From the IMG/VR virus record IMGVR_UViG_3300021541_000005: a stretch of 64,000 nt of DNA; one strand, 5' to 3'. The notes beneath the pieces were generated by a model. The model saw only the letters and a list, made by a program, of their open reading frames with translations. It had not been told where the DNA came from and searched no databases. Positions 15,421 through 63,800 of the stretch are shown here, one piece after another. The stretch is from a virus. The position numbers and the translations under genes are program-made. Each line of letters starts with the position of its first letter. The stretch's first letter is position 1.

Positions 15421-15428
15421 TTTTTTTT

Positions 15429-15500
15429 AGTCCTATGGTGTAATGGCAATCATGGTGGGTTTTGGTCCCGCTGACTCAGGTTCGACTCCTGATAGGACTA
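15429..15500 (+). tRNA. tRNA-Gln (anticodon UUG), no encoded CCA
   Basis: AGTCCTA/TAGGACT acceptor, GTGGG-TTTTGGT-CCCGC anticodon arm, TCAGG-TTCGACT-CCTGA T arm. Confidence 0.95.
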
Positions 15501-15514
15501 TACAACTTTTTTTG

Positions 15515-15598
15515 GGTAGAATAGTCAAGTGGTCAAAGACGATGTGCTTAGGACTCATTCCTTTAGTAGGTCCGCAGGTTCAAATCCTGCTTCTACCA
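15515..15598 (+). tRNA. tRNA-Leu (anticodon UAG), long variable arm, no encoded CCA
   Basis: GGTAGAA/TTCTACC acceptor, loop CTTAGGA, variable arm CCT-TTAGT-AGG, GCAGG-TTCAAAT-CCTGC. Confidence 0.92.
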
Positions 15599-17196: not shown

Positions 17197-18264
17197 ATGG
17201 TGAATATGAATAATGTGCTCACTAAAGTTGTAGCTGCTGCCGGAAAAGATGGTGCTATGAAAGAAGATGAGACAATGTACGATGCAATGTTTGCAAACGC
17301 TGGTATATTGGATAGAAAACAATATAACACTTTTGTACGTGAAATGCAAATCAACAGCGTTATTCTTAACGATGCAGCATTCAAAAGAATGACAAGAGAA
17401 TCTGAAGTAACTTCAGGTGCTAGAATCGAAGGAAGAGTATTGCAAGACGGACGTTTAAAAGAAAGTAGAACAACCAAAAGCGACTTAAAAGAAGCTAAAA
17501 TCGGTTTTGGTTCTGCTGAATTAAACGCTAAAAAATTAAAAGCAAAAACTTCCATTCTTGATGATGATCTTGATGACAACATCGAAGGAACACAATTTGA
17601 ATCTACCCTACAATCCATGATGGGTGCAGCAATGGGTGAAGACTTAGCTGCTATTGCTGTATTCGGGGACACTGATTTAGATTATGATGAAGAACTTTTG
17701 TTCCATACTTTCGATGGATGGGTTAAACAAGCAACTACTACTTTAAAATCAAGTGAATTAGGTTCTACTAATGCAGAAAAAGCATTTAATGTTCATGAAG
17801 ATACTATTGAAGCTTTATTTGATGCATTAATTGCAGCGGTACCTGCAAGAGTAAGACAATCAAATCTTATGAATAGATTTAATATTTATGTTCCTTTTGA
17901 AGTTGAAGATGCTTATAGGAATCTTTTAAAATCACGTAATACTGCACTTGGGGACAGTATGCAAGTCGGTGATGCTCCTTTAAAATACAAACGTTGGAAT
18001 GTTAAATATGCTCCAGAATTGGATGCTGAAGATTGTAAAGCATTAGATAACACTGCAACATGTCTTGGAGGATTCCCAGACTTAATGAGATGGGGTGTTT
18101 ACAAAGACATCAGCATGGAAATGGAACGTAAAGCTGGTGATGAACAAACTAACTTCTGGTATCGTATGAAAGGAGATGCTGGACTTGAAGTATTCAGCAG
18201 CTTAATTGTTGGAAAATTAACCTTAGAGGAGTTAGCTGAAATCCAAGATGAAGCCAAAGCATAG
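17197..18264 (+). CDS. Major capsid protein (HK97 fold expected)
   Basis: Size, position, EDLAAIAVFGD and late-gene codon usage. Confidence 0.85.
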   Translation: MVNMNNVLTKVVAAAGKDGAMKEDETMYDAMFANAGILDRKQYNTFVREMQINSVILNDAAFKRMTRESEVTSGARIEGRVLQDGRLKESRTTKSDLKEAKIGFGSAELNAKKLKAKTSILDDDLDDNIEGTQFESTLQSMMGAAMGEDLAAIAVFGDTDLDYDEELLFHTFDGWVKQATTTLKSSELGSTNAEKAFNVHEDTIEALFDALIAAVPARVRQSNLMNRFNIYVPFEVEDAYRNLLKSRNTALGDSMQVGDAPLKYKRWNVKYAPELDAEDCKALDNTATCLGGFPDLMRWGVYKDISMEMERKAGDEQTNFWYRMKGDAGLEVFSSLIVGKLTLEELAEIQDEAKA

Positions 18265-18273
18265 GTGGTATTT

Positions 18274-18690
18274 ATGGCTTTAGAATCTTGGAATGATTTA
18301 ACTCTTACAGAGAAACGTAAAATCCGCAAGGGTTTTATACGTAATCCTCATAAAGCTTATGAGAGATTACGTGCTCAAGCTGAAGGAGAGACTCCAGACC
18401 CTACACCTACTCCTGATCCAGAACCTGAATTTACTCCTGTAGTTTATGCTTTCACTTCTTATAGTGATGCTGAAAAAACTACTGAATGGGGTACTGGAAC
18501 TGTAGAAACAACTGGTGTAGAATCTAATGGATATACTGAGGTTGAAGTGAAAACTAACTCTGTTGATGGTTTCGTTGGTAATAAGTATTATATTATTTCT
18601 TCTGCTAAGACTGATGGAACTGTTTATGAGTTATTCACTGATGCTGGTACTACTTCAGCGGAGATTTTTGTAACTATTACTGCAAACTAA
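18274..18690 (+). CDS. Probable capsid decoration protein
   Basis: Short helical N terminus, PDPTPTPDPEPE linker, Thr/Gly-rich beta domain. Confidence 0.55.
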   Translation: MALESWNDLTLTEKRKIRKGFIRNPHKAYERLRAQAEGETPDPTPTPDPEPEFTPVVYAFTSYSDAEKTTEWGTGTVETTGVESNGYTEVEVKTNSVDGFVGNKYYIISSAKTDGTVYELFTDAGTTSAEIFVTITAN

Positions 18691-20103: not shown

Positions 20104-21135
20104 ATGAGTTGTAGAGTATTTGGTTTAGAACCAGAAGCTGCCTATGGTGAGGAAGTAGACAAAGATGATTTTCACTTACTTTTTGACCATGATGTAGACA
20201 GCATGGATTTTAAACTCAATGACGAACCGGTAACCAAAAGTTTCGGTTCAAGAATGAATCAAAAAGCAAGAGCTGGAGTAATCAAACCAACAGGTAGTAT
20301 AGAAACTTCAGCAAACCTCCAAATATTAGGAGCTTACTTTTACGGATTCTTAGATAATTATAAGTTCACAGCAGGCCAAAATGGTAAAAACACCCATGAG
20401 TTCTGGGGTGGTGAATCTAAATTATTAAAAAGTTTCAGAGGAAAAGCAGTTAACGACGATTTAATTTTCTACTTAATGGGTTTAATCGTCGATTCAATGA
20501 AACTCGAAGTATCTTCAGAAGACATGACTCTTGGAACTGACTTCATTTATAAAACAGAATTCTCTCAAATTTTAGCCGGTGAAAACGATTACGAAAGAGC
20601 CGAAGAACTAGAAGATGATTTATTCATAATGTTTTACGATGTCATGTTAAAACTCAATGGTAATGACCCTGCCGGCGTGCAGACAAGTTTTACCTTCGAA
20701 GGAAGTAACAATCATGACGTTGACAAAACAATAGGCTTTGGTTACAGACATCCACAGGGACAAGCAAAAGCAGGAAAAAGAGAAAACAGTATCAGCATTG
20801 TAACTACACTTACTCAAGAAACTGTAAGAGCAATATTAGATGCAAGATACGGTGATGTAGACCTTCTTGAACCTGCAAAATGTAAAATATTACAGGTCCC
20901 ATTACAAATTGATGTTGAATTATGTGAATATCCTGGCCTTGGATTAACTATTTTATTCCCTAAATGTACTCTCTTAGCTGAATTCGACAGTAGTGGTATT
21001 GATGATGTGGAAGCAACATTAAATATGGCTACATTAGGTTCTGAAGAGGTTACATTAGCCGATGGAACTACTAAGAAAACAGATATGTATGTTAAATTAG
21101 TCAATAAACAACCTAAGATAGCTCCCAGCATCTGA
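20104..21135 (+). CDS. Major tail tube protein
   Basis: Size, beta-rich character, position before chaperone and tape measure. Confidence 0.75.
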   Translation: MSCRVFGLEPEAAYGEEVDKDDFHLLFDHDVDSMDFKLNDEPVTKSFGSRMNQKARAGVIKPTGSIETSANLQILGAYFYGFLDNYKFTAGQNGKNTHEFWGGESKLLKSFRGKAVNDDLIFYLMGLIVDSMKLEVSSEDMTLGTDFIYKTEFSQILAGENDYERAEELEDDLFIMFYDVMLKLNGNDPAGVQTSFTFEGSNNHDVDKTIGFGYRHPQGQAKAGKRENSISIVTTLTQETVRAILDARYGDVDLLEPAKCKILQVPLQIDVELCEYPGLGLTILFPKCTLLAEFDSSGIDDVEATLNMATLGSEEVTLADGTTKKTDMYVKLVNKQPKIAPSI

Positions 21136-21385
21136 GGTGAATCCTGAAACTATTGATGATTTAGCAATAAGCGTAACTGATGGAACAAATCCTGTAAGTC
21201 AAGTTGAAGTTGCAATAGGAGAAATCACAGGCACTACTGGTAGTCAAGGTGGATGTACCTTGCATGATGTTCCTGTAGGCACGGTTACTGTAACAGCAAC
21301 TAAAACCGGTTACGTAACTTACAGTCAGGAAGTAACAATTACTTCTAGCACTGAAACTTTAGATATTACTTTAGAGCCTCAATAA
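21125..21385 (+). CDS. Ig-like (PEGA/carboxypeptidase-regulatory-like) domain, probably appended to the tail tube by +1 frameshift
   Basis: GTTGSQGGCTL...GTVTVTATKTGY; no RBS before GTG 21137; frame opens at CCC-A. Confidence 0.6.
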   Translation, partial: PASEVNPETIDDLAISVTDGTNPVSQVEVAIGEITGTTGSQGGCTLHDVPVGTVTVTATKTGYVTYSQEVTITSSTETLDITLEPQ

Positions 21386-21408: not shown

Positions 21409-21467
21409 AGAATGAGGCTAAAAACTTTTATTATTTTTCAAAATTATAAAGAATGGAGGCATTTAAA

Positions 21468-21896
21468 ATGGCAATATTAAAAAAATCACAAATTTTACAA
21501 GGTATCAACGACCCTAAAAAAATACGCATTGAAGCATTAGATGGTGAACTCTGGTTAAGACCATTATCTAATTCAGAGTTAGATGAACTTGATAAAATCG
21601 AAGCTAAAGGAATGGAATCCTACGAAACCAATAGTAAATCTCGTGGTAGAATACAAGGGGAAACCGTTGCCAAAGGAAAAATAAACGTTCATTTAGCAAC
21701 TGTTAATGGTGCAAAAGCACGTGATCGTAAAATAGAAATGAGTCTTGACAATCCTAAAAATGCGGATGATCCATGGACTGAAGAGGACATTGGAAAATTA
21801 CCGCGTGATGCAGTAAATGAAATCGTTGATGCAATTAATGAATTATCTGGCCTTGAGGTTACAAAAGGAGATATAGATAAATTTCCTGAAGAGTGA
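21468..21896 (+). CDS. Tail assembly chaperone (lambda G-like)
   Basis: Position between tube and tape measure; RBS ggagg before ATG 21468. Confidence 0.75.
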   Translation: MAILKKSQILQGINDPKKIRIEALDGELWLRPLSNSELDELDKIEAKGMESYETNSKSRGRIQGETVAKGKINVHLATVNGAKARDRKIEMSLDNPKNADDPWTEEDIGKLPRDAVNEIVDAINELSGLEVTKGDIDKFPEE

Positions 21897-22038
21897 TGAA
21901 GGGCAAGACATAATCTGGTTAGATTACTGCGGATACCATTTATGTGAACGTAGCAGTGATTTAACTTACATTCAATCTTATTTTATTAGTAAAGGGCGTG
22001 CTGAATTACATAAAAAAATGAATGAAGTAAAAAAATAA
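21883..22038 (+). CDS. Frameshift extension of the tail chaperone (GT-like), +1 frame (not in ORF track)
   Basis: Open frame FLKSDEGQDIIWLDYCGYHLC...NEVKK with no usable start codon, entered at TTT-C. Confidence 0.7.
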   Translation, partial: FLKSDEGQDIIWLDYCGYHLCERSSDLTYIQSYFISKGRAELHKKMNEVKK

Positions 22039-57835: not shown

Positions 57836-57843
57836 TTTTTTTT

Positions 57844-57915
57844 AGTCCTATGGTGTAATGGCAATCATGGTGGGTTTTGGTCCCGCTGACTCAGGTTCGA
57901 CTCCTGATAGGACTA
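57844..57915 (+). tRNA. tRNA-Gln(UUG) (second copy)
   Basis: Copy of 15429..15500. Confidence 0.95.
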
Positions 57916-57929
57916 TACAACTTTTTTTG

Positions 57930-58013
57930 GGTAGAATAGTCAAGTGGTCAAAGACGATGTGCTTAGGACTCATTCCTTTAGTAGGTCCGCAGGTTCAAAT
58001 CCTGCTTCTACCA
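57930..58013 (+). tRNA. tRNA-Leu(UAG) (second copy)
   Basis: Copy of 15515..15598. Confidence 0.92.
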
Positions 58014-62518: not shown

Positions 62519-63550
62519 ATGAGTTGTAGAGTATTTGGTTTAGAACCAGAAGCTGCCTATGGTGAGGAAGTAGACAAAGATGATTTTCACTTACTTTTTG
62601 ACCATGATGTAGACAGCATGGATTTTAAACTCAATGACGAACCGGTAACCAAAAGTTTCGGTTCAAGAATGAATCAAAAAGCAAGAGCTGGAGTAATCAA
62701 ACCAACAGGTAGTATAGAAACTTCAGCAAACCTCCAAATATTAGGAGCTTACTTTTACGGATTCTTAGATAATTATAAGTTCACAGCAGGCCAAAATGGT
62801 AAAAACACCCATGAGTTCTGGGGTGGTGAATCTAAATTATTAAAAAGTTTCAGAGGAAAAGCAGTTAACGACGATTTAATTTTCTACTTAATGGGTTTAA
62901 TCGTCGATTCAATGAAACTCGAAGTATCTTCAGAAGACATGACTCTTGGAACTGACTTCATTTATAAAACAGAATTCTCTCAAATTTTAGCCGGTGAAAA
63001 CGATTACGAAAGAGCCGAAGAACTAGAAGATGATTTATTCATAATGTTTTACGATGTCATGTTAAAACTCAATGGTAATGACCCTGCCGGCGTGCAGACA
63101 AGTTTTACCTTCGAAGGAAGTAACAATCATGACGTTGACAAAACAATAGGCTTTGGTTACAGACATCCACAGGGACAAGCAAAAGCAGGAAAAAGAGAAA
63201 ACAGTATCAGCATTGTAACTACACTTACTCAAGAAACTGTAAGAGCAATATTAGATGCAAGATACGGTGATGTAGACCTTCTTGAACCTGCAAAATGTAA
63301 AATATTACAGGTCCCATTACAAATTGATGTTGAATTATGTGAATATCCTGGCCTTGGATTAACTATTTTATTCCCTAAATGTACTCTCTTAGCTGAATTC
63401 GACAGTAGTGGTATTGATGATGTGGAAGCAACATTAAATATGGCTACATTAGGTTCTGAAGAGGTTACATTAGCCGATGGAACTACTAAGAAAACAGATA
63501 TGTATGTTAAATTAGTCAATAAACAACCTAAGATAGCTCCCAGCATCTGA
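62519..63550 (+). CDS. Major tail tube protein (second copy)
   Basis: Copy of 20104..21135. Confidence 0.75.
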   Translation: MSCRVFGLEPEAAYGEEVDKDDFHLLFDHDVDSMDFKLNDEPVTKSFGSRMNQKARAGVIKPTGSIETSANLQILGAYFYGFLDNYKFTAGQNGKNTHEFWGGESKLLKSFRGKAVNDDLIFYLMGLIVDSMKLEVSSEDMTLGTDFIYKTEFSQILAGENDYERAEELEDDLFIMFYDVMLKLNGNDPAGVQTSFTFEGSNNHDVDKTIGFGYRHPQGQAKAGKRENSISIVTTLTQETVRAILDARYGDVDLLEPAKCKILQVPLQIDVELCEYPGLGLTILFPKCTLLAEFDSSGIDDVEATLNMATLGSEEVTLADGTTKKTDMYVKLVNKQPKIAPSI

Positions 63551-63800
63551 GGTGAATCCTGAAACTATTGATGATTTAGCAATAAGCGTAACTGATGGAA
63601 CAAATCCTGTAAGTCAAGTTGAAGTTGCAATAGGAGAAATCACAGGCACTACTGGTAGTCAAGGTGGATGTACCTTGCATGATGTTCCTGTAGGCACGGT
63701 TACTGTAACAGCAACTAAAACCGGTTACGTAACTTACAGTCAGGAAGTAACAATTACTTCTAGCACTGAAACTTTAGATATTACTTTAGAGCCTCAATAA
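63540..63800 (+). CDS. Ig-like tail tube extension (second copy)
   Basis: Copy of 21125..21385. Confidence 0.6.
   Translation, partial: PASEVNPETIDDLAISVTDGTNPVSQVEVAIGEITGTTGSQGGCTLHDVPVGTVTVTATKTGYVTYSQEVTITSSTETLDITLEPQ

Follow-up and report, generated by a model that had tools for sequence, protein, structure and literature searches.

A probable programmed +1 frameshift at a CCC codon adds a transthyretin-like domain to the tail tube protein of a Methanobrevibacter virus

Programmed +1 frameshifting at CCC codons has been described for the tail and capsid genes of several bacteriophages. The tail tube gene of SPP1 gives rise to gp17.1 and gp17.1* by a +1 frameshift at CCC_UAA (PMC6316719). 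In the Listeria phages PSA, A118 and A500 the tsh gene is shifted at CCC_UGA, and in PSA the cps gene is shifted at ACA_CCC_UCC with a 3' pseudoknot (PMC5009743). For archaeal viruses, the one proposal of +1 frameshifting concerns the tail chaperone of HSTV-2 (PMC5009743). In the searchable literature, whose coverage leaves Medvedeva et al. 2023 (Nat Microbiol) outside, no published CCC +1 tail extension was found in an archaeal virus, and the only programmed frameshift found for viruses of Methanobacteriales was a predicted -1 shift in capsid genes. We analysed a 64,000-nucleotide (nt) stretch of viral DNA, IMG/VR record IMGVR_UViG_3300021541_000005 (hereafter the window), in which the 3' end of the tail tube gene overlaps a +1-frame open reading frame (ORF) for a small beta-sandwich domain. 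A preliminary description of the window had proposed a frameshift of the SPP1 and Listeria kind, and the phage precedents it named, +1 shifts at CCC on tail and capsid proteins, were borne out in the papers cited above (PMC6316719, PMC5009743). From the comparisons given below, a programmed +1 frameshift at CCC 21124-21126 very probably adds the domain to the tail tube protein of this virus of Methanobrevibacter, a genus of gut and rumen methanogens.

The end of the tube gene was found exactly as previously described, GCT CCC AGC ATC TGA, with GCT at 21121 and CCC at 21124. The TAG reported to close the +1 frame upstream was also confirmed on the sequence (Table 1), so that only four 0-frame codons can host a shift. 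Read over these codons, the +1 frame runs CTC CCA GCA TCT GAG GTG AAT CCT GAA ACT (L-P-A-S-E-V-N-P-E-T) and is open until its TAA, again in agreement with the earlier reading, and the tube gene and the +1 ORF have 14 nt in common. The CCC overlaps a CCA (21125-21127) in the +1 frame, and of the 11 proline codons in the tube gene no other is CCC. The junction peptide put forward in the preliminary description, IAPASEVNPETIDDLAISVTDG, is the product of a four-base CCC-A step (predicted protein P0123); the predicted junction peptide of the long form is ...KIAPASEVNPETIDDLAISVTDG.

On the explanation we favour, most ribosomes would read GCT CCC AGC ATC and stop at TGA, which would give a tube subunit of 343 amino acids (aa). 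We infer that a fraction of these archaeal ribosomes, at some presumed efficiency, would slip +1 with peptidyl-tRNA-Pro on the rare CCC, the tRNA presumably re-pairing with CCA. The +1 reading would yield a 426-aa subunit carrying a short linker of proline, glutamate and threonine (P/E/T) and a C-terminal, 80-residue transthyretin-like (CarboxypepD_reg) beta-sandwich. Both forms would co-assemble, some tube subunits showing the domain on the outside of the tail, where it would most likely serve as a weak adhesin for host-surface or gut glycans.

The locus resembles SPP1 in that the predicted slip lies in the last codons of a tail tube gene, at a rare CCC that overlaps a common CCN codon. The extensions are of similar size, 87 aa in SPP1 and approximately 85 here, and that of SPP1 is likewise a dispensable beta-sandwich decoration. 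It differs from SPP1 in its archaeal host, in having AGC instead of a stop after CCC (sister lineages have CCC_UGA or CCC_UAA), in its transthyretin-like domain where SPP1 has FN3, and in a conserved element resembling a Shine-Dalgarno (SD) sequence 7 nt downstream. As in the Listeria phages, a CCC +1 shift is predicted on both tail and capsid genes of related viruses, and a sense codon after CCC is compatible with shifting, as PSA cps shows. Unlike in the Listeria phages, tube genes in some viruses and capsid genes in others have one identical cassette of site, linker and domain. The SPP1/Listeria-type model of the preliminary description is therefore kept for the CCC site, its conservation and the lack of an own start, and has to be amended for the stop adjacent to CCC, as the window has CCC_AGC with the stop two codons later.

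Loci were chosen by similarity to the domain alone, which gave 85 loci (31 metagenome and 54 IMG/VR). The domain lay in the +1 frame overlapping the end of an ORF of at least 250 aa in 45/85, the definition of the +1 class. It was fused in frame in 12/85 and lay in the -1 frame behind a capsid gene in 4/85; in 20/85 it formed its own ORF or the upstream gene was cut by the contig end, and in the remaining 4/85 it stood at a contig edge. A 0-frame CCC was present within the overlap at 45/45 of the +1 loci. The pattern that the preliminary description had named as speaking against its proposal, a domain ORF kept with the CCC lost, was thus looked for in this class and not encountered. The number of distinct +1 junctions was 34, or 37 after three look-ups were added, in a set that includes loci found via the tube protein. 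CCC lay in the overlap at 37/37 of these, a count that overstates the independent observations because the junctions are phylogenetically related, and for which a raw probability is meaningless. The codon after CCC was TAA or TGA at 22 of the 37 junctions, AGT or AGC at 14 and AAA at one. Elsewhere in the bodies of these genes, CCC made up 6/373 proline codons (1.6%; 0.55 per 1000 codons). The genes upstream of the CCC junctions belong to three unrelated families, namely the tube protein, SU10-type capsid and phrog_1623-type capsid. In the sister locus L232 the shift region consists only of GCA CCC before TGA, the +1 frame opening just two codons ahead of the stop, and this fixes the site as CCC; the other sister, L090, has CCC TAA.

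Homologues in which the two parts are joined in frame were compared with the predicted trans-frame product. The tube protein matched phrog_35581 at 366.7 bits over positions 1-342 of the 434-position profile, and the downstream +1 ORF matched positions 378-427 of the same profile, a first sign that relatives hold both parts in one protein. The long form of the window (P0123, 426 aa, with CCCA read as P) matched this profile in one stretch, 1-427 of 434, at 394.5 bits. Its residues 1-423 aligned with the 432-aa in-frame protein P0119 at 53% identity, with Pro on Pro at the junction. The in-frame fusion L056 (likewise L081 and L096) reads TCT CCC ATA ATT GAG GGG AAT CCT GAA ACT, which is the frameshift form TCT CCC T AAT AAT GAG G.G AAT CCT GAA ACT minus the base after CCC, the rare CCC being kept. 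At the protein level, the predicted product of L016, NESP-NS-EGNPET, is collinear with NESP-II-EGNPET of L056. The conservation of CCC, the lack of conservation of the GTG and of any ribosome-binding site before it, and the collinearity of in-frame homologues with the trans-frame product all support the programmed +1 shift at CCC that had been proposed.

The appended domain had been called Ig-like. It is a small beta-sandwich, as that name implies, although its match to PF13620 and its modelled fold place it with the CarboxypepD_reg/transthyretin-like domains and not with the classical Ig family. The 80-residue +1-frame domain matched PF13620 CarboxypepD_reg at 34.9 bits (gathering threshold 32.3); in the Pfam search it matched only PF13620, PF13715, PEGA and SpaA, and not Big_2, I-set or FN3. 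The AlphaFold model of the domain has seven strands and a predicted local distance difference test score (pLDDT) of 89.6. Its best Foldseek matches in the PDB were 2nsm, 3mn8, 5aq0 and 9hfj (template modelling scores 0.66-0.73), the closest folds being the transthyretin-like domains of carboxypeptidases N, D and M and the N-terminal domain of SusC. The ratio of nonsynonymous to synonymous substitution rates (dN/dS) of the extension was 0.05-0.43 at dS 0.17-1.4 across the clade of the window, in which CCC is followed by AGT or AGC (CCC-AGY), and the sister L090. Among the CCC-AGY clade members it was 0.05-0.35 at dS 0.33-1.4, with up to 0.43 in a close pair. Stops number 6-14 when the extensions of this clade are read in the other frames and are absent from the +1 frame, and no member has a broken ORF. 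These ratios indicate that the extension is under purifying selection and, with the stop-free +1 frame, argue that it is translated. A close relative, L005/L013, whose tube protein is 77% identical, is without any extension, its chaperone gene following 26 nt after the TAA, which indicates that the decoration is dispensable.

Several points weigh against a programmed shift at this site, the first being that the whole case consists of comparative sequence evidence, from junctions related by descent as stated above. In the window no stop directly follows CCC (CCC AGC ATC TGA), unlike at the SPP1 and Listeria tsh sites. The PSA cps site, which has a sense codon in that position, needs its 3' pseudoknot, and none is predicted here. 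RNAalifold on 20 junctions found no conserved 3' RNA fold (-1.5 kcal/mol, 3 pairs, no covariation; pseudoknots were not searched explicitly), and the 107 nt of the window folded no better than shuffled sequences (z = +0.88). A hungry A site at AGY found no support in codon usage or tRNA gene content: AGY is not rare by usage (AGT is the commonest serine codon in these genes at 36%, with AGC at 7.6%), and the nearest genome carries genes for tRNA-Ser(GCU). In favour of the shift, the only tRNA-Pro recovered in that nearest, 99%-complete genome was tRNA-Pro(UGG). tRNA-Pro(GGG) was not found there by an Rfam scan, by BLAST with tRNA-Pro(UGG) or with two anticodon-loop patterns, its absence not being proven since 150/282 candidates were scored. 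As a lead, CCC would be a poor wobble codon for tRNA-Pro(UGG) and the +1 codon CCA its cognate. Finally, in the clade of the window a GTG stands one base after the TGA, so that coupled re-initiation is possible for that clade only.

A tRNA array was also seen in the nearest Methanobrevibacter metagenome-assembled genome (MAG), at 1498-1574 of locus L209 (G002 contig C97). Its members include a tRNA with the anticodon CUA (amber-reading; 'Pyl' in ARAGORN) and a tRNA-Ile(UAU), and the contig may be viral or foreign.

Re-initiation at this GTG would yield a free 82-aa protein, through termination at the TGA and a restart at 21137, that binds the virion non-covalently or has some other role. The TGA-G-GTG arrangement is a plausible coupling geometry, such a gene was called in L236 by one gene caller, and related viruses have stand-alone domain proteins with their own SD and ATG (e.g. 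L153-155). The remark in the preliminary description that the GTG has no ribosome-binding site withstood a comparison with other starts, as there is no anti-16S match of at least 4 nt in the 3-11 nt upstream of 21137, whereas 31/34 control gene starts have one. In other lineages the GTG is replaced at the same position by GGG, GAG, GCA, GTA, GGA or GTC, including the CCC-AGC locus L234. In L234 (CCC AGC GGA TGA), neither ATG nor GTG nor TTG occurs over the first 20 codons of the +1 ORF, and in L232 (CCC TGA) the codons read include no start; the extensions of both were left uncalled by gene callers. A free 82-aa product would also be without the N-terminal anchor of approximately 50 aa seen in the stand-alone forms, and the in-frame fusions show that the domain works when covalently attached. 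Since re-initiation moreover leaves the invariant rare CCC unexplained, we consider it improbable.

Recoding could instead have been lost in the lineage of the window, the stop beside CCC having mutated to AGC and the +1 ORF being an unexpressed remnant. The canonical CCC-stop is indeed missing from the window, no 3' structure is predicted, and L005/L013 manages without the domain. Against this stand the dN/dS of 0.05-0.35 at dS of up to 1.4 and the intact ORF in all members of the CCC-AGY clade. There are also six or more lineages with CCC-AGY, on three protein families: it is found in the clade of the window, L234, L045/L140 and L059, and in capsid genes of two families (L174/L178; L108, L141 and L173). 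In the tube-protein tree (FastTree, moderate support) the CCC-stop, CCC-AGY and in-frame states change at least eight times, and the starred nine-row clade of the window holds seven CCC-AGY and two CCC-stop rows, so that CCC-AGY alternates with CCC-stop. Loss of recoding is therefore judged very unlikely.

An assembly or sequencing indel, or RNA polymerase slippage, with an in-frame fusion as the true gene, might be suspected from the metagenome assemblies that are the sources and from in-frame versions differing by one base, and it is scarcely credible given the same junction in independent assemblies (two MAGs, IMG/VR contigs, ENA and Logan), a +1 arrangement common to dozens of divergent lineages, and a C run that at three bases is too short for polymerase slippage.

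Downstream of the predicted shift site, the junctions share a 3' element with the consensus [C/G]AGGNGA(A)TCCTGAAA at a fixed distance past CCC, encoding the linker E-x-N/D-P-E-T. The SD-like element lies 7 nt downstream. The spacing from CCC to CCT is 19 nt at 31/32 scored junctions and, by eye, also at the 32nd (L232). The glutamate codon of the element is GAG in 21/21 cases, compared with a GAG usage of 12% in these genes. The GAGGTGA of the window (21134-21140) is complementary at all 7 nt to the 16S ribosomal RNA (rRNA) 3' end GGATCACCTCCT; this 3' end was taken from a genome of the same genus, the 16S not being assembled in the nearest genome. The element is retained in the in-frame fusions, and it is not found in the -1 class or at four capsid CCC-AGY/AAA junctions. 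It may act to stimulate the frameshift or as a pause site at a domain boundary, or may be a hitch-hiker in a mobile cassette.

The occurrence of the CCC site on both tube and capsid genes points to a recoding cassette common to both. We entertain, as a tentative and on balance doubtful extension, the idea that CCC_AGY is a stop-independent +1 site on archaeal ribosomes and that the unstructured GAGGNGA(A)UCC, 7 nt downstream, stimulates it through 16S pairing or as a roadblock to the 30S subunit. On that idea, site, stimulator, linker and domain would form a portable cassette, and in Methanobrevibacter viruses this would have passed between genes for tube and capsid proteins.

Related junctions with other contents were seen in the same survey. 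Capsid +1 junctions with the same CCC site are present in L104, L106, L108, L111, L116, L141, L162, L173, L174 and L180 (near 1290-1510), in the families SU10_MCP/PF17236 and phrog_1623, and most of them share the linker and the CarboxypepD_reg domain. Just 3' of CCC, L162 has two and L176 five tandem copies of CCTGAAAC(C), encoding P-E-T repeats, so that linker length varies by repeat number. At 3456-3650 of L059, the gene for a 499-aa tube protein that carries one more domain in frame ends TCC CCC AGT AGT CCA TAG, and its +1 frame runs for at least 44 codons into a highly acidic tail, making it another CCC_AGT junction with a different cargo.

Other described systems share single features with this locus. 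For MSTV1-like Methanobrevibacter viruses, Baquero et al. 2024 (PMC11375127) give a predicted -1 frameshift at A_AAG_GAA in the capsid gene; text searches of that article returned the tube protein only in a figure key and no report of a tube frameshift. Three of the four -1-frame loci in our survey (L114, L145 and L168, with stops at 902, 1487 and 1328) end A AAG GAA GCA TAA, the MSTV1-like site. The window shares with these viruses the host genus, the appended small beta-sandwich and the logic of partial decoration, and differs in direction (+1 versus -1), site (CCC versus A_AAG) and gene (tube versus capsid). TpeX of the lactococcal 936 group, an extension of the major tail protein made by programmed frameshift, and the in-frame C-terminal Ig-like domain of lambda gpV are adhesins or carbohydrate binders (PMC6669499). 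Both resemble the present case as tail-tube decorations, and TpeX also as the product of a programmed frameshift. They are unlike it in their domain families and frameshift position, the lambda domain being fused in frame. In yeast, the Ty3 +1 site GCG_AGU_U has an unstructured 3' stimulator and works without P-site slippage at a codon for a scarce tRNA-Ser. The likeness to Ty3 is one of resemblance only, comprising AGU/AGC as the 0-frame A-site codon, GUN/GCN as the +1 codon and a conserved unstructured 3' sequence; unlike in Ty3, AGT is the commonest serine codon here and CCC can re-pair.

The coordinates of the features discussed are collected in Table 1. The window wraps around a unit of 42,415 bp: positions 1-21585 and 42416-64000 are identical (0 mismatches over 21,585 nt), which fits a complete viral genome that is circular or circularly permuted, or a tandem unit. 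The shift-site CCC is accordingly found again at 63539. A near-identical provirus, with a tube protein 100% identical, is present in a Methanobrevibacter MAG (L089).

Table 1. Positions of the tail tube junction and neighbouring genes in the 64,000-nt window.
Feature	Position	Strand	Basis or remark
Protease or scaffold gene	starts 16105		
Capsid gene, phrog_1623 type	17197-18264		
Tail tube (major tail) protein gene, 0 frame, 343 aa	20104..21135	+	PF18906, phrog_35581, gene order
TAG closing the +1 frame upstream	21119..21121	+	Confines shift to codons GCT, CCC, AGC, ATC
Candidate shift site GCT_CCC_AGC (E, P, A sites)	21121..21129	+	Sole CCC of gene; CCC conserved
+1-frame extension (predicted)	21128..21385	+	Linker 21128-21148; beta-sandwich ~21149-21382; TAA 21383-21385
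0-frame stop TGA, two codons past CCC	21133..21135	+	
Conserved 3' element GAGGTGAATCCTGAAAC	21134..21150	+	Encodes linker E-V-N-P-E-T; GAGGTGA complements 16S 3' end
GTG, only possible independent start of +1 ORF	21137..21139	+	No SD, not conserved
Tail assembly chaperone gene	21453..21896	+	phrog_344, E 2.2e-07
Tape measure protein gene, 1573 aa	22054..26775	+	ORF list; follows chaperone
Second identical copy of tube gene and extension	62519..63800	+	From wrap of the 42,415-bp unit

The gene order is of the siphovirus type: protease/scaffold, capsid, head-tail adaptor, Neck1, a 179-aa ORF, tube, chaperone and tape measure. The PF18906 Phage_tube_2 match of the 20104-21135 product is marginal (27.7 bits against a cut-off of 27). 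The protein also matches phrog_290 'tail' (E 1.8e-14), and the place of its gene, after the neck genes and before those for the chaperone and tape measure, fits a tail tube identity. In an AlphaFold model of the full trans-frame product (7-row alignment) the pLDDT was ~30 over the tube part, at which the tube fold is not checkable; the usable parts of this model are the domain, with pLDDT ~90, and the linker (residues 336-346), which is of low confidence.

A -1 capsid frameshift was considered for this virus and rejected, as the capsid gene ends GCC AAA GCA TAG and the next gene is a distinct one that starts with an ATG at 18274 behind an SD of its own. In this gene (18274-18687), which encodes 138 aa, a TPDPTPTPDPEPE linker joins an N-terminal segment to a beta-rich C-terminal part; it has no PHROG match. 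Its N-terminus resembles, by eye, the stand-alone domain proteins of L153-155, and its product is possibly a separate head decoration protein. A 53-codon +1-frame ORF (21877-22038) overlaps the last 20 nt of the chaperone gene and ends just before the tape measure gene. With this ORF open and the -1 (+2) frame without an open stretch, recoding of the G/GT type looks to be +1 here, not the usual -1. Genes for tRNA-Gln(UUG) and tRNA-Leu(UAG) lie at 15428-15598 (copy at 57843-58013), between a MuF-toxin block and the protease gene.

Little is documented about recoding in archaea, and nearly all of it is prediction; CCC-AGY is possibly a new variant of the site. Archaeal ribosomes combine eukaryote-like termination factors with bacteria-like Shine-Dalgarno pairing. 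On one host genus there are natural variants with CCC_UAA, CCC_UGA and CCC_AGY, in-frame 'fossils' that keep the CCC, and lineages free of the extension; with so many variants of one site, +1 frameshifting on archaeal ribosomes could be directly testable. Since gene callers missed the extension in at least two relatives, counts of surface domains in methanogen viruses may be too low, and the decoration may bear on the adhesion of these viruses in the gut or rumen.

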